Shown: positions 16,613-48,721 of the stretch, piece by piece
Position numbering within the stretch: position 1 is the first letter of the stretch
How the letters are laid out: each line of letters begins with the position of its first letter
Source: Mesonia oceanica
GTDB lineage: Bacteria; Bacteroidota; Bacteroidia; Flavobacteriales; Flavobacteriaceae
DNA length: 64,000 nt
Reading direction: 5' to 3'
Assembly: GCF_902499555.1 (NCBI RefSeq)
Contig: NZ_CABVMM010000009.1
Location: 93,178-157,177, forward strand
Notes under the pieces: generated by a model
The model's database searches: none
The model's input: the letters and a program-made list of their open reading frames with translations, nothing else
What the model was told of the DNA's origin: nothing
Translations under genes and position numbers: made by a program

Positions 16613-16700
16613 AACCGTTACCCTGAACCTGCCCGTCCGGTAGGCGGGCTTGATTCAGGGTCTCATCCTTACTATTTTTGTTTTTCAATGTAGAATGACG
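16613..16700. repeat. REP/MITE-like palindromic element (ccctgaacctgcccgtccggtaggcgggcttgattcagggtctcatcc ... agaatgacg)
   Basis: Same family as 371-480, 19219-19449, 19797-19955, 21849-21910, 22551-22628, 33185-33286. Confidence 0.6.
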
Positions 16701-17510: not shown

Positions 17511-17524
17511 TATTTTTAGTTTTG

Positions 17525-17580
17525 TTTACAGTTTACAGTTTACAGTTTACAGTTTACAGTTTACAGTTTACAGTTTACAG
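17525..17580. repeat. Perfect heptanucleotide microsatellite (TTTACAG)x8 (on minus strand CTGTAAA), flanked by degenerate units tttgttt / tttgtga
   Basis: Direct reading of sequence between trpB stop (17693) and trpA start (17510). Confidence 0.9.
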
Positions 17581-17692
17581 TTTGTGATTTTTTTGCGCTA
17601 GGGATAGTAGCGGCATCCTTTTTTGTTGTACTTCGACAAGCTCATTATGACAACAAAAAAGATATAGCGAATAGCCCGCTCAGGCGCCCAAT

Positions 17693-19796: not shown

Positions 19797-19955
19797 TTCG
19801 TCATCCCAGACCTGCCTGTCCGTCAGGCGAACTTGATCTGGGGTCTCATCTTGATTTGCTCTTTTGATGTGATGCTGTCCCTCGACTCCGCTCGGGGTGA
19901 CTAAGATCTTCAATTAGACGCTTTATCTCGTCTTCCGTATCTGACACGGAATCTC
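19797..19955. repeat. REP/MITE-like elements in trpC-trpF intergenic region (3 units)
   Basis: tcgtcatcccagacctgcctgtccgtcaggcgaacttgatctggggtctcatc; gatgtgatgctgtccctcgactccgctcggggtgac; cgtcttccgtatctgacacggaatctcatc. Confidence 0.65.
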
Positions 19956-21848: not shown

Positions 21849-21910
21849 TCATCCTTCTGATGTGACCCTGAATCAAGCCCGCCTGCCGGACGGGCAGGTT
21901 CAGGGTGACG
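21849..21910. repeat. REP/MITE-like element (inverse orientation: gtgaccctgaatcaagcccgcctgccggacgggcaggttcagggtgacg)
   Basis: Reverse complement of the 19385-19440 unit. Confidence 0.6.
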
Positions 21911-21918
21911 ATAGGGAA

Positions 21919-25500: not shown

Positions 25501-26031
25501 TTATGATCTTAATTTTTCAAGTAATCCATTGAGTTGTTCTAATTCTTGTTTGCTCAAGTTTTTAGTAGCTTCTTTTTCCGATTCTTCTACTTTTGGATCT
25601 AATTCTTTTAAAAGATTTAATCCTTCTTGAGTAATTAAAATTTCGACTTTACGTCTGTTTTCTTCACAAATACAGCGGTCTGCCAATTTTTTATCAATAA
25701 GCTTATCTACCAATCGAGTGGTATTACTCATTTTATTTACCATCCTGTCTTGAATAGTGCTAAGGTTAGCAGGTTTATTTCCTTGGCCGCGTAAAATTCT
25801 TAATACATTGAATTGAGGAACAGAAATTCCATAATTTTTAAGTAAGCACATCATTTCATTACTTGCTTGAGCACTAGTTAGCTGCAAGTTGATAAGCACC
25901 TTTTTATGAATAGAGAGCTTCGCTTTTGTTTTTAAAATTTCTTCAACTTTCATTGTATCGACAATATTTGTATGTACAAATGTATGATTGTTTGATGGAT
26001 ATTTTATTAATAGAATGTTAAAATTTAGCAT
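25501..26031 (-). CDS. MarR family transcriptional regulator (likely true start at 25953, MKVEEIL...)
   Basis: wHTH region QFNVLRILRGQGNKPANLSTIQDRM; first 26 aa of the long ORF look non-native. Confidence 0.7.
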   Translation of the reverse strand: MLNFNILLIKYPSNNHTFVHTNIVDTMKVEEILKTKAKLSIHKKVLINLQLTSAQASNEMMCLLKNYGISVPQFNVLRILRGQGNKPANLSTIQDRMVNKMSNTTRLVDKLIDKKLADRCICEENRRKVEILITQEGLNLLKELDPKVEESEKEATKNLSKQELEQLNGLLEKLRS

Positions 26032-26142
26032 ATTTAGGCTCTTCCTGTGGTTGAAGTTTTAGCTTTAGCCAAAAATTGGCATTAAACTATTGTTAATTCA
26101 GATGAGGTGAATAACAAAATATTCTAATTTTATAGGCTATAG

Positions 26143-26667
26143 GTGAATATGAGTATGAAGAAAATTTTTTTATTTTTTATAGGGATTATTTTTTTGGGTT
26201 GTAAAGAGAATAATTCTTCTAAAACCGAAGAAAATTTTCAGGCAAAAGACATCCCTACCTATAATTTTGAAGAGCTCGAAAAACAGCTTCCACAAACAGA
26301 TGATAAGGTTTATGTAGTAAATTTTTGGGCTACTTGGTGTGCTCCTTGTGTAGAAGAGCTGCCATTTTTGACGATGTTGGATGAAAAAGAGAAAGAGGTA
26401 GAGGTGATTTTAGTGAGTTTGGATATGCCTAAGATGAAAGATACTCATTTAAAGCCTTTTGTAGAAAAGAATAAAATTAAATCTAAGGTGATGTTATTGG
26501 ACGATCCCTACAGTAATAAATGGATTCCCAAAATAGATGAGAATTGGGATGGTGCTATTCCCGCCACTTTAATTTATAATTCTAAAAAGAAAAAGTTTTA
26601 CCCCAAAAAATTTGACACTTATCAAGAATTGCTTGACGAAGTTCAAAAATTTGAAAATGTCAATTAA
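26143..26667 (+). CDS. TlpA/ResA-like thiol:disulfide oxidoreductase lipoprotein (thioredoxin fold, WCAPC)
   Basis: 174 aa; lipoprotein signal ...FLGC; active-site motif WATWCAPC. Confidence 0.7.
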   Translation: MNMSMKKIFLFFIGIIFLGCKENNSSKTEENFQAKDIPTYNFEELEKQLPQTDDKVYVVNFWATWCAPCVEELPFLTMLDEKEKEVEVILVSLDMPKMKDTHLKPFVEKNKIKSKVMLLDDPYSNKWIPKIDENWDGAIPATLIYNSKKKKFYPKKFDTYQELLDEVQKFENVN

Positions 26668-26676
26668 AATATAATT

Positions 26677-27315
26677 ATGAGAACTTTTAAAATCTTAACC
26701 GTTTCTGCCGCTATCATTGCTGTTTCTGCTTTTGCTGTAAACAATGTTGTTGATAGTGAAGAATCTTCAAATTCATCTGAAAAAGGTTACCATATAGGAG
26801 ATACCGCTACCGATTTTGAATTAAAAAACATAGACGGAAAGATGGTTTCTTTAGCTGATTTTGAAAAAGCAAAAGGCTTTATCCTCATTTTTACGACAAA
26901 TCATTGTCCGTATGCCAAAGCTTATGAAGATAGGATTGTAGCTTTGGACAAAAAATATAAGCTGAAAGGATATCCTGTGATAGCGATAAATCCTAATGAT
27001 CCTTCTAAAAATGAGCAGGATAGTTTTGAAAATATGCAATTAAGAGCTAAACAAAAAGGTTTTACTTTTCCCTATTTATTAGATGAAGGCCAAAAAATCT
27101 ACCCGGTTTACGGAGCTACTAAAACCCCACACGTTTATATTTTACAGAAAGAAGCAGGAAAAAATATAGTACGGTACATAGGGGCAATTGATGATAATTA
27201 TCAAGATACAGAGGCAGTTAATGAAAAATTTGTAGAAAATGCTATCGATGAATTACTGGCTGGAGAAAAAGTTTCCCTAACAACCACCAAAGCTATTGGT
27301 TGTGGTATTAAATAA
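26677..27315 (+). CDS. Thioredoxin-fold (redoxin/peroxiredoxin-like) protein
   Basis: 212 aa; signal peptide; single Cys motif TTNHCPYAK in thioredoxin-like context. Confidence 0.5.
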   Translation: MRTFKILTVSAAIIAVSAFAVNNVVDSEESSNSSEKGYHIGDTATDFELKNIDGKMVSLADFEKAKGFILIFTTNHCPYAKAYEDRIVALDKKYKLKGYPVIAINPNDPSKNEQDSFENMQLRAKQKGFTFPYLLDEGQKIYPVYGATKTPHVYILQKEAGKNIVRYIGAIDDNYQDTEAVNEKFVENAIDELLAGEKVSLTTTKAIGCGIK

Positions 27316-27347
27316 AGTTTTACTTTTGTTGAAAATATAAATTATCT

Positions 27348-27662
27348 ATGAAAGAATTATCTCAAGAAGATTGGAAAAAACAATATGAAAATGATGAAAA
27401 CTCGTTTTTATTAGATGTTCGTACCGATGAAGAATATGATGAAAAACATATTCCCAATTCAACTCAACTTGATATTTTTCAAGCTCAGAAGTTTATGGAG
27501 GAAGTAAACGAGTTTGATAAATCTAAAAACTACTATGTTTATTGTAGATCGGGTAAAAGAAGTGCGCAAGCATGTCAGATTTTAGATCAAGCCGGTGTAG
27601 CCAATACCTATAACCTTCAAGGCGGTATTATGGAATGGAAAGGAGAGACTAATTCTAATTAA
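27348..27662 (+). CDS. Single-domain rhodanese-like sulfurtransferase
   Basis: 104 aa; active-site loop YCRSGKRS. Confidence 0.75.
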   Translation: MKELSQEDWKKQYENDENSFLLDVRTDEEYDEKHIPNSTQLDIFQAQKFMEEVNEFDKSKNYYVYCRSGKRSAQACQILDQAGVANTYNLQGGIMEWKGETNSN

Positions 27663-27670
27663 TTATTTGT

Positions 27671-28078
27671 TTGTTGAAGAAAAGTATTTTATACCTCAGT
27701 ATTTTAGTGATTTCATTCAATTTTTTCATATCCTGCAAAGAAGGGGTAGCAAAGGAAGAAAACACTATAGAGATGGTTACTTCGGAAGAAATGGAAAAAC
27801 TTTCTAAAATGGATGATGTGGAAGTTCTTGATGTTCGTACTGAAGAAGAGTTTATTACAGAACATATCAAGAATGCCCAGAATATTGTTTACGATGAAAA
27901 TTTCTCCGATAAAATTAAAGGTTTAGACAAAAGCAAGCCTGTCGTCGTATATTGCAAATCGGGAAGGAGAAGTGAAAAAAGTGCTCAACTATTAAAAGAT
28001 TCCGGTTTTGTGAAAGTTTATGATCTCAAGGGCGGCATCACTCAATGGAAATACGACCAAAAAGAAACTGAAAAATAA
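27671..28078 (+). CDS. Rhodanese-like domain protein (secreted/lipo)
   Basis: 135 aa; signal peptide; active-site loop YCKSGRRS. Confidence 0.75.
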   Translation: MLKKSILYLSILVISFNFFISCKEGVAKEENTIEMVTSEEMEKLSKMDDVEVLDVRTEEEFITEHIKNAQNIVYDENFSDKIKGLDKSKPVVVYCKSGRRSEKSAQLLKDSGFVKVYDLKGGITQWKYDQKETEK

Positions 28079-28085
28079 ACTCTAT

Positions 28086-28847
28086 CTAGAGTTTATTTTT
28101 CAGTTTTAAAAATTCCTGTTCCAGAAAATTCAGTTTTTCCTCTACATTTTTTCCTGAATTTTGCTCAGGGATACGTTTAAAAAATACATATCTTACTTTC
28201 CAGAGTTCTTTAATTTCATTCAAATCAAAAGTTAGATCATCCACACTTTTATGATCTGCTCTTAGCGTTAATTTATTCTTCGCAATATAGAGCCTGCGTA
28301 AAATAAGTTCGTCTTTCACAAGCGCTAGTACAATATTCCCGTTGTTTAATTTTTTATAAACACTGCTCGGTACATATTCACCAATCACTACATCTTTCGG
28401 GTAGAGACCTTGGTCGTGGTCGGTCATTTCTAAATTTGAAACCGTATAGGCCCTAAACTTTTTTTCGGTATTTATAGGAAGTTGAAGTGTAGGTAATCCT
28501 GCAATAAATTGATCATCTTCAAATTGAAGTAGGTAATCTTTTGTGTTTTGTTCTGTAATACACGGGATAGAAGCAAAACTCTCCTTCATCCTTTCTTCTA
28601 CTTTTAACGAAAGATCACCTTTAAACTTTAATAGATGATTTACGGTAAGTTCTTTAGTGAGCAAATCATCAATGGTGATGCTAAAATAATTAGCTATTTT
28701 AAGGATCGTTTCAATTTTGGGTTCACTTCTTCCTTCCTCATAAGCTCCTAAAGTTCCACGTTTTAAGTCAAATAAGTCTGCAAAGGCCTGCTGACTCATA
28801 TTTCTTACATTTCTTATTTTTCTAATGTTTTTACCAAAAAGAGACAT
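28086..28847 (-). CDS. XRE-family HTH + S24 (LexA/phage-repressor-like) domain transcriptional repressor
   Basis: 253 aa; N-terminal HTH_XRE (IRKIRNVRNMSQQAFADLF...YEEG), C-terminal S24-like beta domain (AGLP...GEYV...K); divergent from the pspA cluster. Confidence 0.6.
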   Translation of the reverse strand: MSLFGKNIRKIRNVRNMSQQAFADLFDLKRGTLGAYEEGRSEPKIETILKIANYFSITIDDLLTKELTVNHLLKFKGDLSLKVEERMKESFASIPCITEQNTKDYLLQFEDDQFIAGLPTLQLPINTEKKFRAYTVSNLEMTDHDQGLYPKDVVIGEYVPSSVYKKLNNGNIVLALVKDELILRRLYIAKNKLTLRADHKSVDDLTFDLNEIKELWKVRYVFFKRIPEQNSGKNVEEKLNFLEQEFLKLKNKL

Positions 28848-29114
28848 ATTTTGCTAATTATATTTGCAATATTAAATTTTATTTGTATCTTTATCTAAGA
28901 TTATTAGCTAATATACAATTAAATTGCTAATTAAATAGTCTGAATTTAAAATTAGACTAAAATAATTAGCATTAAATGTTAATTAAATTTTAAAAAAACG
29001 AAGCCTTATGTTATCTTTAATTTTAATAACTTATCCCCATTTGTATTGCTTTTTGGAGCAAAGTGGAATGTTATGTGAACTATTACTATAAACCAGCGAA
29101 AAACCAATATTTGA

Positions 29115-29510
29115 ATGAAAGATCATTTTCAAATTACCAAAAACTTTTTATTGGAGCTTAATTTCAATATTACTTATGAGAATCAAAAAGACGAAGTTAT
29201 AGTGGTACAAAAGGAAAACTTCGGCATTAAAAATTTAATTCTAGGAGTTTCACCGCCTATATTAATTATGGAGCAATTCATATTTAATATCAGCAATCAA
29301 TCAGAAAAAGTCTTTAGAAGTCTATTGCAGAAAAATCGGGATATTATTCATGGCGCTTTTGTGTTAGACGAATCTGGAACTCGTGTAATTTTTAGGGATA
29401 CACTCCAAATAGAAAATTTAGACCTTAATGAACTCGAAGGTTCGTTAAACTCATTGAGCTTATTAATGAGTGAATACTCAGACAACATCATAGAATTTTC
29501 AAAATATTAA
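29115..29510 (+). CDS. YbjN-like (T3SS-chaperone-like fold) putative sensory/chaperone protein
   Basis: 131 aa acidic protein, size and composition similar to YbjN family; first gene of cluster with pspA. Confidence 0.35.
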   Translation: MKDHFQITKNFLLELNFNITYENQKDEVIVVQKENFGIKNLILGVSPPILIMEQFIFNISNQSEKVFRSLLQKNRDIIHGAFVLDESGTRVIFRDTLQIENLDLNELEGSLNSLSLLMSEYSDNIIEFSKY

Positions 29511-29521
29511 AAACCATTATT

Positions 29522-30235
29522 ATGAACATATTTAGACGATTATTTAAAATAGGAGAGTCAGAAGCCAATTCTGCTATCGATAAAATGGAAGATCCCATTA
29601 AAATGACAGAACAAGGAATTAGGGATATGAAGCAAGATTTAGAAAAAAGCCTGGAAGCTTTAGCGCAAGTGAAAGCTTTAGCAATTCGTGCTAAAAACGA
29701 ACAGGAAGAACATCAGGATAAAGCTGAAGATTACCACAATAAAGCGATTTTAATTTTGAAAAAAGCTGAAAAAGGACAAATGGAAAAAGAGGAAGCAGAT
29801 CGTTTAGCTAAACAAGCTTTGGTAAAAAAAGAAGAAGCGCAGCAACACGTTAGCCGTTCTAAAGAAGAGGTGAAAAAGTTTAATGAATCGATCGCTCAAT
29901 TAGAAAATAATATTCAAAATATAAAAGCGAATATTAGCAATTGGGAGAACGAACTAAAAACGCTAAAAGCTCGGGTGAAGGTTTCTAATGCTACCAAGAA
30001 TTTGAATAAACAAATGGCAGAGATTGATAGCTCAAGTACCGTTTCTATGCTAGAGCGTATGAAAGAGAAAGTAGCCCAAGAAGAAGCTTTGGCTGAAGCT
30101 TATGGCGATATAGCCAATGCTTCTAAATCTATAGACGAAGAACTTGAAAAAGCCGCAGATACTTCAGAAGCAAAAGCCGATGACGATTTATCTAAACTTA
30201 AAGAACAATTAGGACTTAACAATAAAGACGCATAA
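29522..30235 (+). CDS. pspA: PspA/IM30 (phage shock protein A / Vipp1, ESCRT-III-like) family protein
   Basis: 237 aa all-helical coiled coil; N-terminus MNIFRRLFKIGESEANSAIDKMEDPIKMTEQGIRDMKQDLEK matches PspA/IM30. Confidence 0.8.
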   Translation: MNIFRRLFKIGESEANSAIDKMEDPIKMTEQGIRDMKQDLEKSLEALAQVKALAIRAKNEQEEHQDKAEDYHNKAILILKKAEKGQMEKEEADRLAKQALVKKEEAQQHVSRSKEEVKKFNESIAQLENNIQNIKANISNWENELKTLKARVKVSNATKNLNKQMAEIDSSSTVSMLERMKEKVAQEEALAEAYGDIANASKSIDEELEKAADTSEAKADDDLSKLKEQLGLNNKDA

Positions 30236-30237
30236 CC

Positions 30238-30939
30238 TTGAACGACTTGATCAACATCATATTTTCTGAAGTAAACCTTGTACTTACCTGTTTACTTCTT
30301 TTATTAGTCGTTTATTGGATATTAACGATGGTTAGCGGAATTGACTTTGACCTGGATGTTGATGTGGATATTGATGTAGACGTAGATGCCGATGCCGGGA
30401 TCGAAGGTGGGAATATGGATTTTCAAGACGTCTCGAATGCCGAAGTAGATAAAGATACGGTTGTTGGTAAACGACGTCAGCCCCTAAAATGGTGGCAAGT
30501 ATTTTTAATTTATTTCAATTTCGTAGGCTTGCCCTTTATGTTCACTTTTACCTGTTGGGTTTTTGTCTGGTGGTTTATTACTGTATTTACCACAAGCCTT
30601 ACACATAGTTACGACTCCAGTTTCGGATTTTTAATTATGATTTTAGCCTTTATTCCGGCGCTTATTATTACTAAGGTGATCACGACACCATTCAAGAATT
30701 TTTTCAAAAATCTGAATAAAGATGGAGATAAGGCAGTCGATTATATCGGGAGGCGTGGCGTTATGCTTTCAACAGTTTCCGAAGAAAAAATGGGAAATGC
30801 AGAAGTCGTCATCGATGGTAATTCATACAATATTTACGTGAAGTCGCTAGACGGTTCGACCATAGCTTATCATCAAGAAATTTTAATCATCAATAAGTCG
30901 AAAGACAACAATTATTTTTTAGTACAAATCTATAACTAA
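30238..30939 (+). CDS. NfeD/YqiJ-like inner-membrane protein (partner of flotillin)
   Basis: 233 aa; N-terminal TM, acidic DV-repeat (DLDVDVDIDVDVDADAG), 3 more TMs, C-terminal OB-like soluble region; located immediately upstream of an SPFH/flotillin gene as in E. coli yqiJK. Confidence 0.5.
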   Translation: MNDLINIIFSEVNLVLTCLLLLLVVYWILTMVSGIDFDLDVDVDIDVDVDADAGIEGGNMDFQDVSNAEVDKDTVVGKRRQPLKWWQVFLIYFNFVGLPFMFTFTCWVFVWWFITVFTTSLTHSYDSSFGFLIMILAFIPALIITKVITTPFKNFFKNLNKDGDKAVDYIGRRGVMLSTVSEEKMGNAEVVIDGNSYNIYVKSLDGSTIAYHQEILIINKSKDNNYFLVQIYN

Positions 30940-30955
30940 CTTAACTTAAATTATT

Positions 30956-33046
30956 ATGGGAGATGTTTTACAGTGGATAGCAATACCGCTTATAGGATTG
31001 GTATTTTTAATCGTGATATACTTTGCGATTATTGCAATGTTTTACAAAAAAGTGCATCAAGGCCAAGCACTTATCCGTACCGGTTTTGGAGGTACAAAAG
31101 TAGCTACCGATAAAGGGCTGTATGTCGTGCCGGTATTTCACCGTGTCGAAATTATGGACGTATCGGTAAAGAAAATTCAAATCGAGCGTCAAGCTCATGA
31201 AGGTCTTATTTGTAAAGACAATATGCGTGCCGATATAAAAGTTGCTTTTTTCGTTCGGGTTAATAACGACGTGAGTTACATAAAAAAAGTAGCACAAACT
31301 ATAGGAGTAGCACGAGCTTCTCGTATTGAAACCTTAGAAGATTTATTTGAAGCCAAATTTTCTGAAGCTTTAAAAACCGTGGGTAAAAAGTTCGAATTTA
31401 TTGAGCTTTATGAAGCCCGTAGAGAGTTTAGGGACGAGATTGTAAATATTATCGGTACCGATCTTAACGGTTATACCCTAGAAGATTGTGCGATCGATTT
31501 CTTGGAGCAAACTCCGGTACAACATCTAAAACCGGATAATATTTTAGATGCTGAAGGGATTAAGAAGATCACCGATCTTACGGCTGCTCAAAATATTAAA
31601 GCCAACTTAATTAAGCGTGATGAAGAAAAAACCATCCGTAAACAAGATGTAGAAGCACGTGAAGCCATTCTAGAATTAGATAAGCAATTAGCAGAAAAAG
31701 AAGAATCTCAAAAACGAGAAATCGCTAATATTAAAGCTAGAGAAGGTTCAGAAATTTTAAAGGTTGCTGAAGAAGAGCGCTTAAAGTCTGAAACTGCTCG
31801 TATTGCTACTGAAGAAAAAGTGAAGGTTGCCGAAGAGAATATGAACCGTCAAATTATTGTAGCTGAAAAGAATAAACTACGTACCGAGGCTGTGGAAACA
31901 GAACGAGTAGAAAAAGATCGTTTGTTGGAAGCTACAGAGAGAGAGCGCGTAGTCACTTTAGCTCAAATAGAAAAAGAAAAAGTAGTTGAAGTAGAGAAGA
32001 AAAACATACAAGATGTGATTAGAGATCGTGTCATGTTAGAAAAAGGAGTGGTAGAAGAGCAAGAAAATATGAAAGATATTGAAGCCTTTAAAACTGCCGA
32101 CCGTGAGAAGAAAGTAAAAGTAACCAATGCGGAAGCAAACGCTCAAGAAGAATTAATTAAAACCATTAAAGCTGCAGAAGCTCAAAAAGAAGCTGCCAAA
32201 CAGAAAGCAGAAGAAATTAATATAGAAGCGATGGCTCGTAAAGAAGCGAGTGAAAAAGAAGCCGAAGCTAGAAAGACATTAGCAGAAGCTCAAGCTAAAG
32301 AAGAAGCCATTATTGGTATGTCTGAAGCACAAGTAATGCATGCGAAAGCAGATGCTAACGAGCGTCAAGGTATTGTAGATGCTTCCATTATCGAGAAAAA
32401 AGCGAAAGCAGAAGCTGCAGGGATTGAAGCCAAGGCAGAAGCTTCTCGAAAAGAAGGTAAAGCAGAAGCAGAAGTGATTAAAGAGAAAGCCCTTGCCGAT
32501 GCTGCCGGAATTGAAGAAAAAGCTGCGGCCATGAAGAAGTTGGATGGTGTTGGTAAAGACCACGAAGAGTTTAAACTTCGTTTAGATAAAGAATTACAAA
32601 TTGATTTGGCACATATCAATATCCAAAAAGATATTGCCGATGCACAAGCGCAAGTTCTAGGTGATGCTTTAAAACAAGCGAAGATTGATATTGTTGGAGG
32701 TGAAACTATGTTCTTCGATAATATTGTATCGCAAATTAGTCGCGGTAAAGGTATCGACAGGTTAGTTCAAAACAGTGAGAATATTCAGCAAGTGAAAGAT
32801 TCTATTTTGGGGAGCGATGATATTCAAGGAAATCTATTAGAACGCGTTCGAGAATTTGCTGCTAAATATGGTATTTCTACCGAAGATCTCAAAAACTTAA
32901 CGATCGCCAATCTATTAATCGATTTAAAAAGCAAAACCAATAGTGATAAAGAACATACGATGTTTAGTAACCTATTGAACCTGGCTAAAGGTTTAGGATT
33001 GTCAGACAAGACCATTGGTGCCGTAGGAAGAGAGCGTTTAAGCTAA
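30956..33046 (+). CDS. Flotillin-family SPFH/band-7 protein (YqiK-like) with long E/A/K-rich coiled-coil tail
   Basis: 696 aa; N-terminal TM, SPFH domain, ~350 aa of EAKA-type heptads. Confidence 0.8.
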   Translation: MGDVLQWIAIPLIGLVFLIVIYFAIIAMFYKKVHQGQALIRTGFGGTKVATDKGLYVVPVFHRVEIMDVSVKKIQIERQAHEGLICKDNMRADIKVAFFVRVNNDVSYIKKVAQTIGVARASRIETLEDLFEAKFSEALKTVGKKFEFIELYEARREFRDEIVNIIGTDLNGYTLEDCAIDFLEQTPVQHLKPDNILDAEGIKKITDLTAAQNIKANLIKRDEEKTIRKQDVEAREAILELDKQLAEKEESQKREIANIKAREGSEILKVAEEERLKSETARIATEEKVKVAEENMNRQIIVAEKNKLRTEAVETERVEKDRLLEATERERVVTLAQIEKEKVVEVEKKNIQDVIRDRVMLEKGVVEEQENMKDIEAFKTADREKKVKVTNAEANAQEELIKTIKAAEAQKEAAKQKAEEINIEAMARKEASEKEAEARKTLAEAQAKEEAIIGMSEAQVMHAKADANERQGIVDASIIEKKAKAEAAGIEAKAEASRKEGKAEAEVIKEKALADAAGIEEKAAAMKKLDGVGKDHEEFKLRLDKELQIDLAHINIQKDIADAQAQVLGDALKQAKIDIVGGETMFFDNIVSQISRGKGIDRLVQNSENIQQVKDSILGSDDIQGNLLERVREFAAKYGISTEDLKNLTIANLLIDLKSKTNSDKEHTMFSNLLNLAKGLGLSDKTIGAVGRERLS

Positions 33047-33055
33047 ACTATTATT

Positions 33056-33086
33056 AACCTACAAGGTTTTACAAACCTTGTAGGTT
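33056..33086 (+). terminator. Perfect 14-bp palindrome AACCTACAAGGTTT-tac-AAACCTTGTAGGTT after flotillin gene
   Basis: Direct reading; shares CCTACAAGG core with hairpin at 38306-38347. Confidence 0.45.
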
Positions 33087-33184
33087 TGATCATAGATTTA
33101 GGATTGTCATCTGCTGTCAGTTTGAGACTTTCAGCGAAGCTCAATACAGGCTTAGTCAAGAACTATATAGCACCTAAAATTGAG

Positions 33185-33286
33185 CGTTACCCTGAACTTG
33201 TTTTAGGGGCTCATTCAGATGATTTCAAAATGAAGATGTGATGCTGAGTCAAGCTTGCCTGCCGGGTGGTCAGGCTCAGCATGACG
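33185..33286. repeat. REP/MITE-like elements (cgttaccctgaacttgttttaggggctcattcagatgatttc; gatgtgatgctgagtcaagcttgcctgccgggtggtcaggctcagcatgacg)
   Basis: Same word family as the trp-operon repeats. Confidence 0.6.
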
Positions 33287-33358
33287 TTAATTTTAACCAC
33301 AATCATTTCTTTTTAAAATTCAAAAAGAATTAATTAACCGCTTGTTCAAAAATTACTT

Positions 33359-36300
33359 ATGCAAGAAGAACAACAAGAACAAAACAATCAGACCTTAGAT
33401 GGTGGTACCTATGAGATTATAAAGAGCCGATTGCAAAAGCAGAAGCAAGAGCTTCAGCAGCGTTTGCAACAACTTAACGAAAGCAGAAAAGAAGTTTTCG
33501 GTTCTTTAGAAACCAAACTCATTGCCAATAATCGCATCAATACCGAGAATAATTGTATTGCTAGAGATATTGTTTCTATCGATAAGCTTTGCATCTTTGG
33601 ATACAATGTTCATTTTGGTTTACGTACCGAAATTACGCTAGATGATGTATTTAGTATTTACGAATATAAAGATCAGCAGTTTGAACCGGTTTCTTTAGCG
33701 CTTATTGAAGATAGTACTTTTCAGACCGATTTTACCAACCTTTACAAATATTACAGAAATACCATTTTTTCCAAGTTTGCCATCATCGGTAATTACTTAC
33801 ATATGGTTTTTCAGCTGAGTGATAGCGTCACCGATATAAAAACCTTCAAGTGGTTGATCAATGATGGCAAGCTAAGCTATATTGACAATCGAAGTGAACA
33901 CGAATATAAATTTCCGCAGCAGCACGAGTTCAATTGGCAACAAGCCGGAAGAGATGAACAGCGTCACGGGGAACATTCACATATTTCTATTTTAGATAAG
34001 GTTTTTGTAGAAACTATTGGTGGCGATCTCACGATAAAAATTGAAGACAACACTCACGATGGGAAAGGGATCTATAACGAACCGGTTGAATACCAAGATC
34101 AAACCTTGGATGACGGTCAGTTTAGATTTGCCAATTTAGGAAACCTCATTGTGTTAGAGATTAAACCTTTTCAGGAAGAGGCACGTTATTTTGTTTACAA
34201 CCATAAACTACAAGAGGTTCAAAAAATAGATAGCATAAAAGATGCTGCAGTGTTGCTACCCGATGAACAAGGCATCATTTTTCCGAATGGTTACTATTTG
34301 CAAACTGGGGAATATCAAATTTTTGATAGTGATACCCGCAATTTAAAATTTCAAAAGAGAATTGCTTCACCTAACGGGGAAGATTACCTTTTTGTGTTTT
34401 ACGCGCAAGATCGCGGGATGTATGTGTTAATGTCTTACAACGTGATTGAGCAAACGGTACAAACGCCAATTATTTGTAATGGTTATACCGTTCAGCCCAA
34501 TGGTGAGTTATGCTATTTTAAAGGTGAAGAGGAGCAAACCAAACACCATATGGTACAAATTTGGCAAACCCCATTTTTAAAAGGAGATATCATGCCTTCG
34601 CAACATCAAGATACGATGTTGTATAAGATAGGGAATAAGGATATTGTTCGCGCGATGGCAGAGGCCCAAGAGCTCATTAATTTATTAAGCAAAGAAGATA
34701 ATTATAGCGGACTTTATGATGATGTAGCCAAACTTTCTAAAGATATTTTAGATACTTATTATTGGCTGTCTGAAGAAGAAACCCAGCAGTTGAACCTTCC
34801 GTTATCAGAAATTAATAAAGCAGCCAATGCTGCTATTGATGAGTTTGAAAAAGTAGTTCAGCTTAAGCGGAATGCCAAGCAAGAAACAGAGAAATTTACC
34901 AAGAAAGCAGAAGAGGTTTTTTCAAAAGTAAAAAGCACTTCCTTTAAATCGATTGAAGATTTTGTAAAGCTTTTAAACCAAATGCGAACCTTACGTGGGG
35001 AAGCGATTGGTCTATATGAAATCAGGTATGTTGATGAAACCCTGATCAAATCGATAGAAGAAGAAATTGCTGAATTTACCGAAAAGATTTCTCAACGATG
35101 CGTTCAGTTTTTGTTAGATGAAAAAGCTTTGGCTCCGTATCATGAGAAGGTCGAAGAAAAAAAGATAGCGCTCGATAAAATTGAAAAAGTTATCGAAGCG
35201 AAAAATCTGGAAGAAGAAGTCAACCAAATTGCACAAGACTTAGAAATGCTTATCGAGATTGTTTCGAATCTTGATATTGAAGATACTTCGCACTCTACCA
35301 AGATCATCGATAATATTTCGTTGATTTTCGCTACGCTGAATCAATTAAAAGCGGCGATTAAAAATAAGCGGAAAAGTCTAGGGAGCAAAGAAGCTAAAGC
35401 CGATTTTGCAGCCCAATTAAAATTGATTGATCAGAGCATTATCAATTATTTGGATATTGCTGACACGACCGAGAAAACCGAAGATTTTCAAACTAAAATT
35501 TCAATTCAGTTAGAAGAGTTAGAAGGAAAGTTTGCCGATTTTGAAGAGTTTATCAGCCAAATCATTGAAAAGCGGGAGGAAGTTTACAATGCCTTTGAAG
35601 CGCGGAAAAATGCTATTACCGAAAAGCGAAACAAGCGAAGCTTAGCTTTAGAAAATGCCGCCGATCGCATTCTAAAAGGTGTGGATAAGCGTGCGTTAAA
35701 TTTAGGTTCTGCTACCGAGATCAATGGGTATTTTGCTTCCGATCTAATGGTGAATAAACTTCGGGATATTATTCAGCAATTAAAAGATTTGGACAATTCC
35801 GGGCGAGCAGAAGAGCTAGAAACCAAGCTAAAAGTCGCTCGGGAAGATGCCTTACGTAAGCTAAAAGATAAGCTAGAATTATACGAAGATGGCGATAACG
35901 TCATCAAGTTTGGGAAGCACAAATTTGGCGTGAATAAGCAAACGCTTGATTTAACAATTGTTTATCGTAATCATCAACTTCAATACCATTTAACGGGAAC
36001 CGATTTTTATGAAGAAGTGACCAATCCCATCTTATTAAATTCAAGAAGCCTTTGGGATCAAGAATATATTTCTGAAAATGAACAGGTGTATCGAAGTGCC
36101 TATTTGGCTTATAAATTATTCAGCAGTCTTCCTTTTTCAAAGCTAGCAAATGCCAATTCAGAAGAACTATTAAAAACTGTTCAAGAAGAAAGTAGTAGCA
36201 ATTATGCCGAAGGTTATGTAAAAGGAGTTCACGACAGAGATGCGGCTGATATTTTAGAAGTCTTGGTACGTAAACATCAAGAACTGGGTTTACTTCGCTA

Positions 36301-38227
36301 TTCGCCTAAAACCAGGGCTAAAGCTCAGTTTTTTTGGCATAGTTTACCAGAAGAACTTCAACAGAAATTTAATGAAGTTTTAAAATCTTCCGGAGAAGTT
36401 TTGAGCTTTTTTCCTGATACGAAAGAATACGATTTTTTAATTCAGCAATTAGAAAGTGCTATTTTTCAAGTGGCAGAAAACTCGGTCTTACTTTCTACGT
36501 CAAATAGCAAAGCGATGGCCAATTACTTGTTTGAAGAATTGCAGGGCGACGATCAGTTTCAAATAAGTGGAGATGCTTTGAAGATCAAAGAAGGTTTCTT
36601 GAAGACGCTTCAGGAAAAGCAAGCCGATTTAAAATTTAAGAACAGCTATGAAAAATTAGACGAGCTTGAAGCTAAAATTCAGCTAATTCGGCAATGGGTA
36701 AATTCTTTCCTAAGAACATCTTCTGCTAATTATGAGGAAGTCTATGTAGATGAGGTAGTGGCTATCATCTTGTTTAGCGATGATTCTGTTGAGAAAGTTA
36801 AGCATATTTCGGCAAGGGAAACCATTCAAGATTTAAAAGGCGATCACCCGACTTTAAAAGAAGGGGAGTTTCAATTTAACTATCATGAGTTTATTGCTGC
36901 TTTAGCCGCATATAATGAAGAAATTGTACCGGCTTACCAAGCGTTTAAAAAAGCAAAACAAGAAGTTACTGAAAGTTTAAAAGAAGATTTAAAACTGGAA
37001 GAATTGAAACCAAGGGTGTTGACTTCTTTTGTGAGAAACAAGCTCATCAACGAAGTGTATTTACCGCTTTTTGGAGATAATTTATCGAAGCAGTTAGGAA
37101 CTGTGGGCGATTACAAACGCACCGACAGAATGGGAATGTTGCTGCTCATTTCGCCACCGGGTTACGGAAAAACCACTCTAATGGAATATATTGCCAATCG
37201 GTTAGGATTGGTATTTATGAAAATCAATGGTCCTGCGATAGGACACGAAGTCACTTCGGTAGATCCGGCGGCAGCCAACAACTCGGCAGCGCGAGAAGAA
37301 CTAAAGCGACTGAATTTGGCTTTTGAAATGGGCAATAATGTCATGTTGTACTTAGATGATATTCAGCATTGCCATCCTGAATTTTTACAGAAATTTATTT
37401 CGCTCTCTGATGGAACCCGAAAAATAGAAGGGGTTTATAAAGAGAAATCAAAAACCTACGATTTACGCGGAAAGAAGTTTTGTGTGATTATGGCAGGAAA
37501 CCCATATACCGAAAGTGGAGAAAAGTTTAGGATTCCCGATATGTTGGCCAACCGAGCCGATATTTACAACTTAGGAGATATTATTGGTGATACCGCACAT
37601 TTATTCAAATTAAGTTTAATCGAAAATGCACTCACCTCTAACCCGACTTTACAGCAATTAAGCAGTAAACATTTTGATGATATTTATCGACTGATTGATC
37701 GTGTGGAAAATCAAAATCCTGAAATTCAGCTGGAAGGTAATCATACGCCACAAGAAGTGCAGGACTATGTTTCGGTTTTAGAGAAAGTAATTACGATTAG
37801 AGATACTGTGTTGAGGGTGAACGAAACCTACATCAAATCGGCTGCGATGGAAGATGAATATAGAACAGAACCGGCATTTAAATTACAAGGTTCTTATCGT
37901 GATATGAATAAACTGATCGGTAAAGTCGTGCCGATTATGAATAAAGAAGAACTTGCTACTTTATTACTGTCTCATTATGAAAGTGAATCGCAAACGCTCA
38001 CCACTTCTGCAGAAGCGAATTTATTAAAGTTTAAAGAGCTTCAACAAAATTTGACTGCCCAAGAAAATGAACGTTGGAATGTGATTAAAGAAACCTTTCT
38101 GAAAAACAATAAACTGAAAGGCTTAGGCAATAAAAATGAAATGGCTCAGGTATTGAACCAAATGGTGGCCTTCACAGATAATCTAGAAGGCATTAAACGA
38201 GTTTTGGAGCAAGGTTTTATGAAATAG
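33359..38227 (+). CDS. Giant (1622 aa) multidomain protein with C-terminal AAA+ ATPase domain of the MoxR/dynein-like (AAA_5) type; function unknown
   Basis: Walker A LLISPPGYGKTTLMEYIA (~aa 1265), Walker B VMLYLDDIQH, sensor-1 CVIMAGNP; Q/E-rich N-terminal coiled coil, beta-rich region aa ~60-420, long central helical/coiled-coil region. Confidence 0.7.
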   Translation: MQEEQQEQNNQTLDGGTYEIIKSRLQKQKQELQQRLQQLNESRKEVFGSLETKLIANNRINTENNCIARDIVSIDKLCIFGYNVHFGLRTEITLDDVFSIYEYKDQQFEPVSLALIEDSTFQTDFTNLYKYYRNTIFSKFAIIGNYLHMVFQLSDSVTDIKTFKWLINDGKLSYIDNRSEHEYKFPQQHEFNWQQAGRDEQRHGEHSHISILDKVFVETIGGDLTIKIEDNTHDGKGIYNEPVEYQDQTLDDGQFRFANLGNLIVLEIKPFQEEARYFVYNHKLQEVQKIDSIKDAAVLLPDEQGIIFPNGYYLQTGEYQIFDSDTRNLKFQKRIASPNGEDYLFVFYAQDRGMYVLMSYNVIEQTVQTPIICNGYTVQPNGELCYFKGEEEQTKHHMVQIWQTPFLKGDIMPSQHQDTMLYKIGNKDIVRAMAEAQELINLLSKEDNYSGLYDDVAKLSKDILDTYYWLSEEETQQLNLPLSEINKAANAAIDEFEKVVQLKRNAKQETEKFTKKAEEVFSKVKSTSFKSIEDFVKLLNQMRTLRGEAIGLYEIRYVDETLIKSIEEEIAEFTEKISQRCVQFLLDEKALAPYHEKVEEKKIALDKIEKVIEAKNLEEEVNQIAQDLEMLIEIVSNLDIEDTSHSTKIIDNISLIFATLNQLKAAIKNKRKSLGSKEAKADFAAQLKLIDQSIINYLDIADTTEKTEDFQTKISIQLEELEGKFADFEEFISQIIEKREEVYNAFEARKNAITEKRNKRSLALENAADRILKGVDKRALNLGSATEINGYFASDLMVNKLRDIIQQLKDLDNSGRAEELETKLKVAREDALRKLKDKLELYEDGDNVIKFGKHKFGVNKQTLDLTIVYRNHQLQYHLTGTDFYEEVTNPILLNSRSLWDQEYISENEQVYRSAYLAYKLFSSLPFSKLANANSEELLKTVQEESSSNYAEGYVKGVHDRDAADILEVLVRKHQELGLLRYSPKTRAKAQFFWHSLPEELQQKFNEVLKSSGEVLSFFPDTKEYDFLIQQLESAIFQVAENSVLLSTSNSKAMANYLFEELQGDDQFQISGDALKIKEGFLKTLQEKQADLKFKNSYEKLDELEAKIQLIRQWVNSFLRTSSANYEEVYVDEVVAIILFSDDSVEKVKHISARETIQDLKGDHPTLKEGEFQFNYHEFIAALAAYNEEIVPAYQAFKKAKQEVTESLKEDLKLEELKPRVLTSFVRNKLINEVYLPLFGDNLSKQLGTVGDYKRTDRMGMLLLISPPGYGKTTLMEYIANRLGLVFMKINGPAIGHEVTSVDPAAANNSAAREELKRLNLAFEMGNNVMLYLDDIQHCHPEFLQKFISLSDGTRKIEGVYKEKSKTYDLRGKKFCVIMAGNPYTESGEKFRIPDMLANRADIYNLGDIIGDTAHLFKLSLIENALTSNPTLQQLSSKHFDDIYRLIDRVENQNPEIQLEGNHTPQEVQDYVSVLEKVITIRDTVLRVNETYIKSAAMEDEYRTEPAFKLQGSYRDMNKLIGKVVPIMNKEELATLLLSHYESESQTLTTSAEANLLKFKELQQNLTAQENERWNVIKETFLKNNKLKGLGNKNEMAQVLNQMVAFTDNLEGIKRVLEQGFMK

Positions 38228-38305: not shown

Positions 38306-38347
38306 AAAAACCTACAAGGTCTTTTTTGTTTGACTTTGTAGGTTTTT
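38306..38347 (+). terminator. Rho-independent terminator (aaaaacctacaa...ttgtaggttttt + T-run) after the 1622-aa gene
   Basis: 12-bp stem, followed by ttttttt. Confidence 0.5.
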
Positions 38348-38743
38348 TTTATCCTATGACTATAAAAGCTTTTATTAAAGTTTAACGTTGAATGAAATTA
38401 GGGGATAAAATTTCCGGGGAAATTCAATAATTAGTCTAAAGTACCTAGAAAACTTTTGTATGAAATACAGTTTACTATTTCTATGATCGGTATTTTATCT
38501 TTAAAAACTAATGAATATCCAAGGTAGTTGTAGGTAAATAAGAATTTTATTTTCAATAAAAAAATATTAAAAAATCATTAAATTTATGTTTTCTTTACAT
38601 TATCTTTATTTTAAGGTGCATGATATAAGATTATTAAATTTTAACCTATGGATATTGTGATTAACGTAATAATGATATTAGGAGGTATTTCCTTTTTAGG
38701 GATTGTCTTGGATGAATTAATGAAGACTTTATAGGTCTTAACA

Positions 38744-39373: not shown

Positions 39374-39595
39374 ATGGAATCATTAGCATCATTTGTAAAA
39401 GCACGAAGAAAAGAAGTAAACTTAACCCAAGAAGAGTTTGCAAATCGAGCAGGGGTAGCATTAACCGTTATCCGTAAGATAGAACAAAACCAAACAAATT
39501 TGAACCTGGATAAAGTAAATCAGGTGTTAAAAATGTTTGGTCATCAACTAGTACCGGTTAGTTTAAAAGATATAGAAGTTAATGAGGCAAGCTAA
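39374..39595 (+). CDS. hipB: HipB-like XRE-family HTH protein (73 aa)
   Basis: HTH_XRE motif LTQEEFANRAGVALTVIRKIEQNQTNLNLDKVNQVLKMFG; first gene of 3-gene operon with 14-nt overlap to next ORF. Confidence 0.65.
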   Translation: MESLASFVKARRKEVNLTQEEFANRAGVALTVIRKIEQNQTNLNLDKVNQVLKMFGHQLVPVSLKDIEVNEAS

Positions 39596-39914
39596 GATTT
39601 TTTACGATACTGCTTATTGTGGTAAACTAACAGAGACCAATGATGGAGAGTTCGTATTTAAATATGATGAAAATTACGTGCGTGACTATCCCAATCAATT
39701 TATCACTTTTACCATGCCTGTTCGTAAAAAAGAATATAAAGAAAAACGCCTGTTTGCCTTTTTTGAAGGTTTAATTCCTGAAGGTTGGCTATTGGATATT
39801 GCTTCCAAAAATTGGAAAGTTAATAGAAACGACCGAATGGGATTATTGTTGACTTGTTGTAAAGACTGTATAGGAGCAGTAAGTGTTCACCCCATAGCAA
39901 CTGATGATGAGTAA
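39582..39914 (+). CDS. hipS: HipS-like protein = stand-alone HipA N-terminal (couple_hipA) domain (110 aa), putative antitoxin
   Basis: FFEGLIPEGWLLDIASKNWKVNRNDRMGLLLTCCKDCIGAVSVHP matches HipA N-domain consensus (LLPEG...GxDCxGA). Confidence 0.65.
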   Translation: MRQAKIFYDTAYCGKLTETNDGEFVFKYDENYVRDYPNQFITFTMPVRKKEYKEKRLFAFFEGLIPEGWLLDIASKNWKVNRNDRMGLLLTCCKDCIGAVSVHPIATDDE

Positions 39915-40848
39915 GTGTTTATACTGTTATAAAGAGGTTTCGGGAGAAAGTGACTTTCATCAAGCTTGTAGTTTAAGGTTTTTTGGAACAAAAACTCCTC
40001 CTAAAATTGCTCATTCTATTCAAGAAATGAAGGAATTAGCTAAACAGGTTGTAGAACGTAGCATAGCTGTTCCTGGGGTGCAACCAAAAATATCGATGTC
40101 TATATTTGATAATAATAGCGATCAGAGGCTTACCGTGGTAGGGGCATTAGGAGGAAATTATATTTTTAAACCACCTTCAGAACATTTTCCTGAAATGCCT
40201 GCCAATGAACATGTCACGATGAAAATGGCTGAATTATTTAATATTTCCGTTGTCCCACATTCATTGATCAGGCTTTCTTCCGGTGAATTATCTTATATCA
40301 CCAAACGAATAGATCGTAAAGAAGATGGAAGTAAAATTCATATGATCGATATGTTTCAGGTCGTAGAAGCATTTGATAAATACCGAGGATCGATGGAACG
40401 TATAGGGAAGGCGGTTCTTGAATATGCAGAAAATACGCTATTAGATATTTTGCGTCTTTTTGAATTAACTGTTTTTAGTTATCTAACGGGAAATAACGAT
40501 ATGCACTTAAAAAACTTCTCCCTAATAAAAGCAGATTATGGATGGACGCTTTCTCCAGCTTATGATCTGCTAAATATTTCTATTGTAAATCCGGACGATC
40601 AGGAAGAACTGGCTTTAACACTTGCCGGGAAAAAGAAAAAAATAACTAGAAAATTATTAGTCGATTTTGGTCTTGGTTTAGAATTAACCCCAAAACAAAT
40701 AAACGGGGTTTTTAAAAGATTTCAAAAGTCTAAAAATAAAGCTATTGACTTAATTCATAATTCGTTTTTAAGTGAAGAAATGCAGAAGTCTTATATAAAA
40801 TTATTAGAAAATAGGTATGAAATTCTCTTGAAAGAAAATGAGTTGTAA
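39904..40848 (+). CDS. hipT: HipT-like Ser/Thr kinase = HipA C-terminal catalytic domain (314 aa), putative toxin
   Basis: VPGVQPKISMSI (HipA 'GaQpKfsl' motif), catalytic loop GNNDMHLKNFSL, SPAYDLLN motif; N-terminal CxxC...H..C extension. Confidence 0.7.
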   Translation: MMSKCLYCYKEVSGESDFHQACSLRFFGTKTPPKIAHSIQEMKELAKQVVERSIAVPGVQPKISMSIFDNNSDQRLTVVGALGGNYIFKPPSEHFPEMPANEHVTMKMAELFNISVVPHSLIRLSSGELSYITKRIDRKEDGSKIHMIDMFQVVEAFDKYRGSMERIGKAVLEYAENTLLDILRLFELTVFSYLTGNNDMHLKNFSLIKADYGWTLSPAYDLLNISIVNPDDQEELALTLAGKKKKITRKLLVDFGLGLELTPKQINGVFKRFQKSKNKAIDLIHNSFLSEEMQKSYIKLLENRYEILLKENEL

Positions 40849-41038: not shown

Positions 41039-41866
41039 GTTGTGAATACCTTTCCAACTAAAGGCTGTTACAACGGTTGCAAAACCATTGAAAAGGAGTT
41101 GCCTGTTGTGAATACCTTTCCAACTAAAGGCTGTTACAACATGGTAGGGAAACATAACAAAGACGAAAGTGTTGTGAATACCTTTCCAACTAAAGGCTGT
41201 TACAACATTCAATCAAACAATTGTATTATAAAATTAGTTGTGAATACCTTTCCAACTAAAGGCTGTTACAACCAACAATGTATGGGCGATGAATGCCGCC
41301 TTGTTGTGAATACCTTTCCAACTAAAGGCTGTTACAACCAGATCGCTAGACAAAAGATTAAAAGACGGGTTGTGAATACCTTTCCAACTAAAGGCTGTTA
41401 CAACATGGCGTTCAAGACAATTGGAGACAAATAGGTTGTGAATACCTTTCAAACTAAAGGCTGTTACAACTTGCGGGATATGGTTATGATGAGATCGCTC
41501 GTTGTGAATACCTTTCAAACTAAAGGCTGTTACAACATTACCAGATGTTTTAACCCCTGTTACTATGTTGTGAATACCTTTCCAACTAAAGGCTGTTACA
41601 ACTTGTGACGATTGTATAACAAAAGAATTCTAGTTGTGAATACCTTTCCAACTAAAGGCTGTTACAACCAATACACTCCTCACAAGGCTTTTCGGTATGT
41701 TGTGAATACCTTTCCAACTAAAGGCTGTTACAACAAAAAATTTGGTATCCCTATTGAATACGATGTTGTGAATACCTTTCCAACTAAAGGCTGTTACAAC
41801 CATCGATCTTTCTTCACAAACAAGCGACTTGTTGTGAATACCTTTCCAACTAAAGGCTGTTACAAC
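41039..41866 (-). CRISPR. Type VI-B CRISPR array: 13 repeats x 36 nt (GTTGTGAATACCTTTCCAACTAAAGGCTGTTACAAC on +; transcribed form likely GTTGTAACAGCCTTTAGTTGGAAAGGTATTCACAAC), 12 spacers x 30 nt
   Basis: Repeats at 41039,41105,41171,41237,41303,41369,41435,41501,41567,41633,41699,41765,41831 (each +35); repeats 7 and 8 carry the same C->A change (TTTCAAACT); 36/30 nt geometry is diagnostic of Cas13b arrays; minus-strand orientation inferred from similarity of the reverse-complement to the published B. zoohelcum DR. Confidence 0.95.
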
Positions 41867-41961
41867 CTATTTTATATAAGGTATTGTTAATTAATGTGTT
41901 TATTGAAAAACCTTCAGATAAAATGATGTCAAAGAGCTTTACAAAGCTAAAATCATAATGC

Positions 41962-48657: not shown

Positions 48658-48721
48658 AATTATTTAATTAGCAATTAAAGTGTTAAGTTTGTTTTAATCG
48701 AAATTACTTAACACTTTTTTA

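Follow-up and report, generated by a model that had tools for sequence, protein, structure and literature searches.

We analysed a 64,000-nt window of the genome of the marine flavobacterium Mesonia oceanica (NCBI RefSeq assembly GCF_902499555.1, contig NZ_CABVMM010000009.1, positions 93,178 to 157,177 of the forward strand; all coordinates below are those of the window), and report here on six genes at 28086-38227 that constitute a real and widely conserved membrane-stress cluster. Five of the genes encode, in this order, a CesT-like protein, a PspA protein, a YqiJ/NfeD-like membrane protein, a flotillin-like SPFH protein and a giant ATPase, and a regulator gene diverges from them. We give about an even chance to the reading that the cluster is a chromosomal membrane-maintenance module acting at the cytoplasmic face of the membrane, in which the giant protein would be the ATP-driven partner of flotillin/NfeD assemblies and could be coupled to PspA. 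The gene order is repeated across dozens of genera, far above chance. A preliminary description of the window had called the six genes and their domains, and checks of the open reading frames (ORFs), Pfam matches and homologues agreed with it. The features are as follows.

28086-28847, minus strand: divergent regulator, 253 aa (HTH_3, 2.9e-12; Peptidase_S24, 2.7e-5; short C-terminal coiled coil)
28848-29114, intergenic: divergent control region, 267 bp, AT-rich (~27-30% GC), with three copies of the candidate operator TGCTAATTA
29115-29510, plus strand: CesT/Tir-like small chaperone-fold protein, 131 aa (PF22550 CesT_Tir_1, 1.2e-55, full length)
29522-30235, plus strand: PspA/IM30 protein, 237 aa (PF04012 PspA_IM30, 3.3e-44)
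30238-30939, plus strand: YqiJ/YuaF-type (NfeD2-like) membrane protein, 233 aa, TTG start (assigned by homologues and family profile)
30956-33046, plus strand: flotillin-like SPFH protein, 696 aa (Band_7/SPFH, 1.3e-13)
33047-33358, intergenic: spacer, 312 bp, with a hairpin (~33056-33087) and a repeat resembling repetitive extragenic palindromic (REP) elements (33182-33216)
33359-38227, plus strand: giant ATPase, 1622 aa (DUF3686, 1.4e-183; DUF7902; C-terminal AAA domain)
38306-38350, plus strand: intrinsic terminator ending the cluster (16-bp hairpin followed by U8, -21 kcal/mol, z = -6.7)

The preliminary description had not recognised this combination as a named system, but the layout is not new, having been published already as a computational prediction. 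Ravi et al. (mSystems 2024; bioRxiv 2020; PMC11237479) described an operon comprising a CesT/Tir-PspA pair, YqiJ/YuaF, band-7/flotillin and a beta-propeller/coiled-coil AAA+ protein, with ANH61663.1 of Dokdonia donghaensis DSW-1 as an example and a divergent 'cHTH+Protease' gene included in their supplementary table. They proposed an ESCRT-like, ATP-dependent membrane remodelling, drawing the same ESCRT/Vps4 analogy as the preliminary description, and reported that shorter YqiJ-flotillin-AAA+ operons lacking PspA are more widespread (PMC11237479). All six genes, their order and orientation, the divergent regulator and the bacterial family are shared between their operon and the window cluster, with no difference in architecture, and the features of their operon class are all present here: cesT and pspA are adjacent (11-nt gap), a YqiJ gene is followed by a band-7 gene, and the giant protein combines propeller, coiled coil and AAA+ module. 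The description by Ravi et al. is computational only, and to it we add counts of gene linkage, the loss of catalytic residues in the S24 domain of the regulator, a predicted non-Vps4 character of the AAA+ module, a candidate operator, and a DUF2170-PspA variant attached to the triad of YqiJ-like, flotillin-like and giant ATPase genes.

We then examined the neighbourhood of the giant gene in 160 related loci. Eighty of these came from species-representative genomes, all with a giant protein at least 44% identical to that of the window, and 80 were taken from metagenomes, with the most distant giant subfamily as seed. ORFs of each locus were scored with profiles built from the window proteins, and the counts below are for loci with enough upstream DNA, those for PspA covering the upstream flank of the giant gene only. 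A flotillin-like gene was found directly upstream of the giant gene and on the same strand in 63/65 genome and 54/57 metagenome loci (117/122 overall), and a YqiJ-like gene upstream in 61/65 and 53/57, respectively (114/122 overall). The median gap between the flotillin-like and giant genes was 90-123 nt; in some relatives the two ORFs overlap, and in others the spacer exceeds 2 kb. PspA, on the other hand, was present upstream in only 41 of 110 loci (31/65 genome, 10/45 metagenome). A CesT-like gene of the PF22550 type was seen in 30/65 genome and 2/45 metagenome loci, and the HTH-S24-like regulator in 30/65 and 3/45, only two of these three also carrying cesT.

The distribution of the additional genes was strongly structured. 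Thirty genome loci carried the regulator, cesT and pspA together and in identical order, all of them from Bacteroidota (Flavobacteriia, Sphingobacteriia, Cytophagia and Bacteroidia), and one more genome locus carried PspA alone, without regulator or cesT. Nine high-GC metagenome loci (L088, L093, L101, L105, L106, L110, L112, L119 and L154) encoded a DUF2170 protein (YjfI family, 3.5e-49) and then PspA (4.1e-55) ahead of the triad, with no divergent regulator, and represent a second version of the five-gene operon. DUF2170/YjfI has been assigned to the CesT/Tir superfamily by Ravi et al. (PMC11237479). These counts make the YqiJ/NfeD-like, flotillin-like and giant ATPase genes the conserved core of the cluster, and the CesT-like/PspA pair a recurrent, optional addition that draws on different CesT-like families in two clades. 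The regulator is almost entirely tied to the Bacteroidota version, two other loci having a weaker match.

Judged by record titles, the genome loci come from Bacteroidota, Planctomycetota, Verrucomicrobiota, Desulfobacterota and Clostridia, so that the membership of the giant ATPase in a conserved functional cluster, as anticipated in the preliminary description, is seen in at least five phyla. The linkage to flotillin and NfeD/YqiJ that it had envisaged was borne out, and that to PspA was seen in a minority of loci. The genes that flank the cluster in the window (thioredoxin-like and rhodanese genes upstream, HipBA and Cas13b genes downstream) were not found beside it in the other loci, save for four isolated matches, and the cluster thus moves as a unit.

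The giant protein begins with an N-terminal helix and a beta-propeller (DUF3686, nt 33449-34762), continues with spectrin-like rods that include DUF7902 (nt 35123-35377), and ends in an AAA+ module (approximately nt 37112-37570) with a helical lid. Fold matches supported the propeller and helical-rod regions, and this make-up agrees with the published domain description (Ravi et al., PMC11237479). With clustering at 50% identity, a search with residues 1-1200 retrieved 1396 clusters under an E-value limit of 1e-3 and 425 under one of 1e-30, the architecture of ~1600-1900 aa being retained down to 27% identity. The closest named relative is from Mesonia phycicola (83% identity), Dokdonia strains are at 72%, and numerous genera of Flavobacteriaceae, as well as Echinicola, have giant proteins of 69-72% identity. 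A literature search for DUF3686, PF12458 and DUF7902 returned no papers, and no experimental study of the giant family was found; among solved structures, only the Walker A segment matched, to p97/VAT-type chains.

Across 23 giant sequences with 32-48% identity to that of the window, the Walker A motif SPPGYGKTT, the Walker B motif DDIQH, the sensor-1 Asn in AGNPYTESG and an Arg (finger) in PDMLANRAD were invariant. Since the Walker A motif, sensor-1 Asn and Arg finger are all invariant and the Walker B motif is unusual, the giant protein is plausibly active, though atypical, as an ATPase. Residues 1140-1622 were modelled with AlphaFold at medium confidence (predicted local distance difference test, pLDDT, 74, and below 50 in the P-loop region), and the model placed a beta-hairpin (model residues 216-229) between the Walker B and sensor-1 strands. 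In AAA+ classifications, a hairpin before sensor 1 excludes membership of the classical clade to which Vps4 and FtsH belong. Foldseek comparison of the model with the PDB ranked RuvB, NorQ (MoxR family), ClpB-NBD2/Skd3 and Lon above Vps4, which appeared at rank 21, although scores were low throughout (query template-modelling score <=0.27). No MIT domain was detected by Pfam in the giant protein at E-values up to 0.01, its N-terminus being helix and propeller, and Pfam likewise gave no other known ESCRT-III-binding domain. As modelled, the AAA+ domain is not Vps4-like, because of the lack of an MIT domain, the hairpin before sensor 1 and the better scores of RuvB, NorQ, ClpB and Lon.

The partners of the giant protein in the triad were assigned less directly. 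The 233-aa protein had no direct Pfam match, even at E=10, but 6 of its 16 clear homologues matched YqiJ_N (best 9.6e-7), and the best PDB match of the family profile was the soluble NfeD domain of B. subtilis YuaF (2k14, E=0.045). The alignment showed a transmembrane helix, an acidic, D-rich loop, further transmembrane helices and a C-terminal beta domain, and supported the TTG start. By this transitive evidence the protein can be placed in the YqiJ/YuaF (NfeD2-like) family, in keeping with the NfeD-YqiJ-like gene of the preliminary description.

The SPFH protein has a hydrophobic transmembrane helix at approximately residues 6-30, a Band_7 domain at residues 32-230, a long Glu/Ala-rich coiled coil and a C-terminal region. 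Its assignment to the flotillin class from sequence did not succeed: phmmer against the PDB gave no match, Pfam Flot (PF15975) was not matched in this protein and 11 homologues (12 members), where Glu/Ala low complexity may mask it, and the sole PDB match of the family profile was a weak one to the coiled coil of QmcA (3.6e-4). Because Flot was not detected, the name 'flotillin' is used here on the basis of architecture and operon partner, the protein having the membrane anchor and SPFH/Band_7 domain of flotillin-type (SPFH2) proteins and a partner of the YqiJ/YuaF type. SPFH proteins are usually co-operonic with NfeD partners, and in yqiJK of E. coli and yuaFG/floT of B. subtilis, as in the window, the gene for a YqiJ/YuaF-type protein ending in a C-terminal beta domain precedes that for a flotillin-like SPFH2 protein (PMC2636767). 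Neither operon includes the giant ATPase, PspA or the regulator. The SPFH protein of the window, at 696 aa, exceeds theirs in length, and most related loci encode one of 650-730 aa.

The two proteins of the optional pair were more readily identified. The 131-aa protein had been described as YbjN-like; the small ORF is present at 29115-29510, but its match to YbjN (19.5 bits) falls short of the 22-bit threshold, and its family is CesT_Tir_1. In all 30 Bacteroidota genome loci carrying cesT, the gene lay immediately upstream of pspA, and the CesT-like protein is likely a PspA partner. The Pfam PspA_IM30 match spanned 218 of 220 profile positions, and residues 1-230 of the window protein aligned with residues 1-217 of solved PspA/Vipp1 (6zvr, 8qbw) at 2e-17. 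Judged by these alignments, it is a genuine ESCRT-III-superfamily protein with the full-length helical-hairpin architecture, as the preliminary description had held.

SPFH proteins build membrane-attached cages, as seen in solved SPFH complexes including the flotillin and QmcA-YbbJ structures. In the membrane-maintenance module that we favour, the SPFH protein and its NfeD partner would likewise assemble into a membrane-attached cage or microdomain. Near-obligate gene adjacency makes it most likely that the giant protein docks on this flotillin/YqiJ assembly, for which its propeller and rods would serve. The AAA+ ring would then spend ATP to remodel or disassemble the flotillin assembly, to load clients into it or to process them. 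Where PspA is present, the CesT-like protein would hold it, and it would be brought to these sites to seal or reshape damaged membrane, in a manner reminiscent of YdjI and PspA in B. subtilis, where the SPFH protein YdjI is required for PspA localisation (PMC8581546). In many Bacteroidota, M. oceanica among them, the CesT-like/PspA pair and the divergent HTH regulator have become attached to the front of the triad.

A more specific version of this scheme is possible but somewhat doubtful: the giant protein would be a dedicated ATP-driven remodeller of the flotillin/NfeD cage, coupled to PspA in some lineages so that the turnover of flotillin microdomains and an ESCRT-III-like sealing of the membrane would work as one inducible repair machine, with the regulator and its dead S24 domain sensing a protein or lipid signal and not DNA damage. 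If true, the giant protein would be the first partner that is specific to flotillin-type SPFH assemblies and consumes energy.

A different role is implied by the ESCRT analogy of Ravi et al. (PMC11237479) and the preliminary description. The giant protein would then be a functional counterpart of Vps4 that takes apart or remodels PspA polymers, and flotillin and YqiJ would serve only as a membrane platform. PspA does belong to the ESCRT-III superfamily, the attachment of CesT-like/PspA pairs from different CesT-like families to the triad in two clades speaks for a real functional tie, and the published hypothesis is identical. However, 69 of the 110 informative loci (~63%) carried the triad without a nearby PspA, and no locus of the genome set from Planctomycetota, Verrucomicrobiota, Desulfobacterota or Clostridia had one. 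The giant protein also lacks the domains by which ESCRT-III is known to be bound, and its modelled AAA+ fold falls outside the classical clade. We therefore consider the Vps4-like role unlikely. Measured against archaeal and eukaryotic ESCRT-III/Vps4 (CdvB/CdvC) systems, a PspA-superfamily gene near an AAA+ gene is a shared feature and ATP-dependent remodelling a reasonable analogy, but the giant protein has no MIT domain, appears to be of another AAA+ subtype, is four times larger and is linked mainly to flotillin.

Several points weigh against the membrane-maintenance reading that we prefer. No published experiment was found on any protein of the cluster. The flotillin-like gene is not adjacent to the giant gene in 5 of 122 loci, and its product, as described above, escapes the Flot profile and resembles only QmcA among solved structures. 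The Walker B motif is invariantly Asp-Asp in place of Asp-Glu, and hydrolysis by the giant protein may be slow or regulatory; the model of its AAA+ module is, as noted, of medium confidence and the fold matches are weak. PspA could be a direct substrate of the giant protein after all, since two clades have PspA pairs joined to the triad. In the window itself, co-transcription of the flotillin-like and giant genes is possible but uncertain, because a hairpin and a REP-like repeat separate them. This hairpin (-21.8 kcal/mol, z = -7.5) has no U tract, and the repeat at 33182-33216 is 86% identical to 19293-19327, within a region of palindromic repeats at 16.6-21.9 kb. Of the terminator and REP elements that the preliminary description had placed before the giant gene, the spacer shows this hairpin, without a U tract, and one REP-like repeat.

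Known SPFH systems offer partial parallels to the proposed module. In HflK/C-FtsH, and in prohibitin with the m-AAA protease, an SPFH cage works with a hexameric AAA+ machine. The window cluster resembles HflK/C-FtsH in joining an SPFH scaffold to an AAA+ protein, seen here as near-obligate gene adjacency. Unlike FtsH, however, the giant protein has no protease domain or transmembrane segment; it is predicted to be cytoplasmic, carries a propeller and rods, and its modelled fold is nearer to RuvB, MoxR and ClpB-NBD2. The SPFH protein of the window is flotillin-like with a cytoplasmic coiled coil, whereas HflK/C is periplasmic. A link of PspA to an SPFH protein within one operon has been shown experimentally for B. 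subtilis pspA-ydjGHI (PMC8581546), but that operon lacks an AAA+ ATPase, an NfeD/YqiJ partner and a CesT-like protein, and YdjI is a short, non-flotillin SPFH protein. FloA with NfeD is cited in PMC13086221 as an ATP-independent stabiliser of unfolded proteins.

We next consider the control of the cluster. The regulator was found to fuse an N-terminal HTH (HTH_3) to a C-terminal S24-like domain, whose Peptidase_S24 match (24.3 bits) lies just above the Pfam cut-off (23.3 bits). It had been taken in the preliminary description for a LexA-like, autocleavable repressor of the damage- or phage-inducible type. The window regulator and 30 homologues (n=31) were aligned with LexA, lambda cI and UmuD, the references aligning correctly with their Ser and Lys. 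At the position of LexA Ser119, Glu was present in 18 of the 31 proteins and Ser in one; at that of Lys156, Arg was present in 20, Gly in 7 and Lys in none. The window regulator reads VSNLEM and LILRRLY at the two sites of the dyad, that is, Glu and Arg. A conserved Ala-Gly (or Cys-Gly) cleavage site was not seen in the linker, where columns were variable and the alignment uncertain. The loss of the LexA-type catalytic residues makes self-cleavage unlikely, contrary to the preliminary description, and the C-terminal domain is most likely a degenerate S24-like module used for dimerisation or sensing. The regulator would respond through this inactive domain to a ligand or partner protein, and not by RecA-stimulated self-cleavage. 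As it is not SOS-like, DNA damage would be a poor inducer to try.

The AT-rich divergent region of 267 bp shared with the regulator gene was confirmed at 28848-29114, as first described. The motif TGCTAATTA occurs at 28852-28860 (plus strand), 28925-28933 (plus strand) and 28963-28971 (minus strand), which puts three of the five exact copies of the 64-kb window into 120 bp inside the divergent spacer. Inverted pairs of the operator-like motif are found in this spacer, and a related TTAGCAA core is present in 20 of 31 equivalent spacers (the window and 30 related loci). The clustered copies are a candidate operator, predicted from the sequence, and the regulator probably binds these repeated sites. 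The shorter word TTGCTAA was rejected as a window-wide over-represented element (13 found, 20 expected), and the exact 9-mer stands out by its local clustering alone. A scan for sigma-70 promoters and terminators in the window gave counts equal to those in shuffled sequence, the consensus being ill-suited to Bacteroidota.

One stretch of the control region has a partner elsewhere in the window. Positions 28915-28965 are 76% complementary over 51 nt to 48633-48683, an AT-rich spacer between unrelated Exo_endo_phos and cytochrome c-like genes that holds one more exact copy of TGCTAATTA. The similarity is probably an AT-rich chance match, though the spacer could be a second putative site of the regulator.

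The possible anti-phage role raised in the preliminary description, by which the cluster would act in envelope defence or abortive infection under a phage-type repressor, is very improbable. The HTH of the regulator does resemble those of phage and control proteins (RstR, 6.5e-14; PADLOC HTH models), and in the window the cluster is succeeded by a toxin-antitoxin pair of the HipBA type and a CRISPR locus with Cas13b. However, PADLOC 2.0 gave no defence-model match for the five structural proteins beyond coiled-coil and P-loop noise (>=1e-3), with only the regulator HTH matching, and defence-type neighbours are not kept beside the cluster elsewhere. The identity of the giant protein among Flavobacteriaceae genera and Echinicola follows a vertical, core-like pattern, and the regulator lacks the self-cleavage residues of inducible phage repressors.

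The least probable explanation takes the database name of the giant protein at face value (Pfam titles DUF3686 'ATPase involved in DNA repair' and NCBI homologues are called 'DNA repair ATPase', with weak RuvB-like matches at the P-loop and in the fold search), leaving the membrane neighbours as incidental or as a matter of SOS-type control; but no experimental basis for the name was found in a literature search, neither a nuclease nor a helicase nor a DNA-binding domain was detected in the giant protein, its RuvB similarity is limited to generic AAA+ elements, its neighbours are almost always membrane proteins, and the catalytic residues of the regulator are not LexA-like.

Since the operon had already been published as a prediction, the value of the cluster lies in its use as an experimental target and not in its discovery. 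The function of bacterial flotillins is still debated, and the non-classical members of the PspA family have no known energy source. The giant family, with its ~1,400 clusters at 50% identity in several phyla, offers a genetically tractable handle on both the flotillin and the PspA questions. Flotillin, and not PspA, is the constant partner of the giant protein, and binding tests should start there.

A few further observations were made in the window. The hairpins at 33056-33087 and 38309-38347 share the stem AACCTACAAGG..., with a U tract only after the second, and may represent a recurring terminator or attenuator module of the genome. GC-rich, REP-like palindromic repeats of ~35-52 nt, 75-94% identical and intergenic, are present at 16616-16667, 19293-19434, 19799-19896, 21859-21911 and 33182-33216, and the 7-mer GTTTACA is repeated in tandem in ~9 copies at 17524-17593.

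Upstream of the cluster, 25501-28078 encodes a regulator of the MarR family on the minus strand, a pair of thioredoxin/AhpC-TSA-like proteins and a pair of single-domain rhodaneses, a set suggestive of a small redox cluster for thiols or sulfur. Downstream, between the cluster terminator and a CRISPR array, lies a HipBA-type module with a split HipA (39374-40848, plus strand), whose overlapping ORFs code for an antitoxin of the HTH_3 family (73 aa), a protein with the N-terminal domain Couple_hipA (110 aa) and one with the kinase domain HipA_C (314 aa). The array itself (41039-41866) contains 12.5 copies of the 36-nt repeat GTTGTGAATACCTTTCCAACTAAAGGCTGTTACAAC with 30-nt spacers. It is followed at 41962-45366 (minus strand) by an ORF of 1134 aa that had no Pfam match and scored 860 bits against the cut-off of 150 with the NCBIfam model VI_Cas13b, and by these matches 41039-45366 is a type VI-B CRISPR-Cas13b locus.

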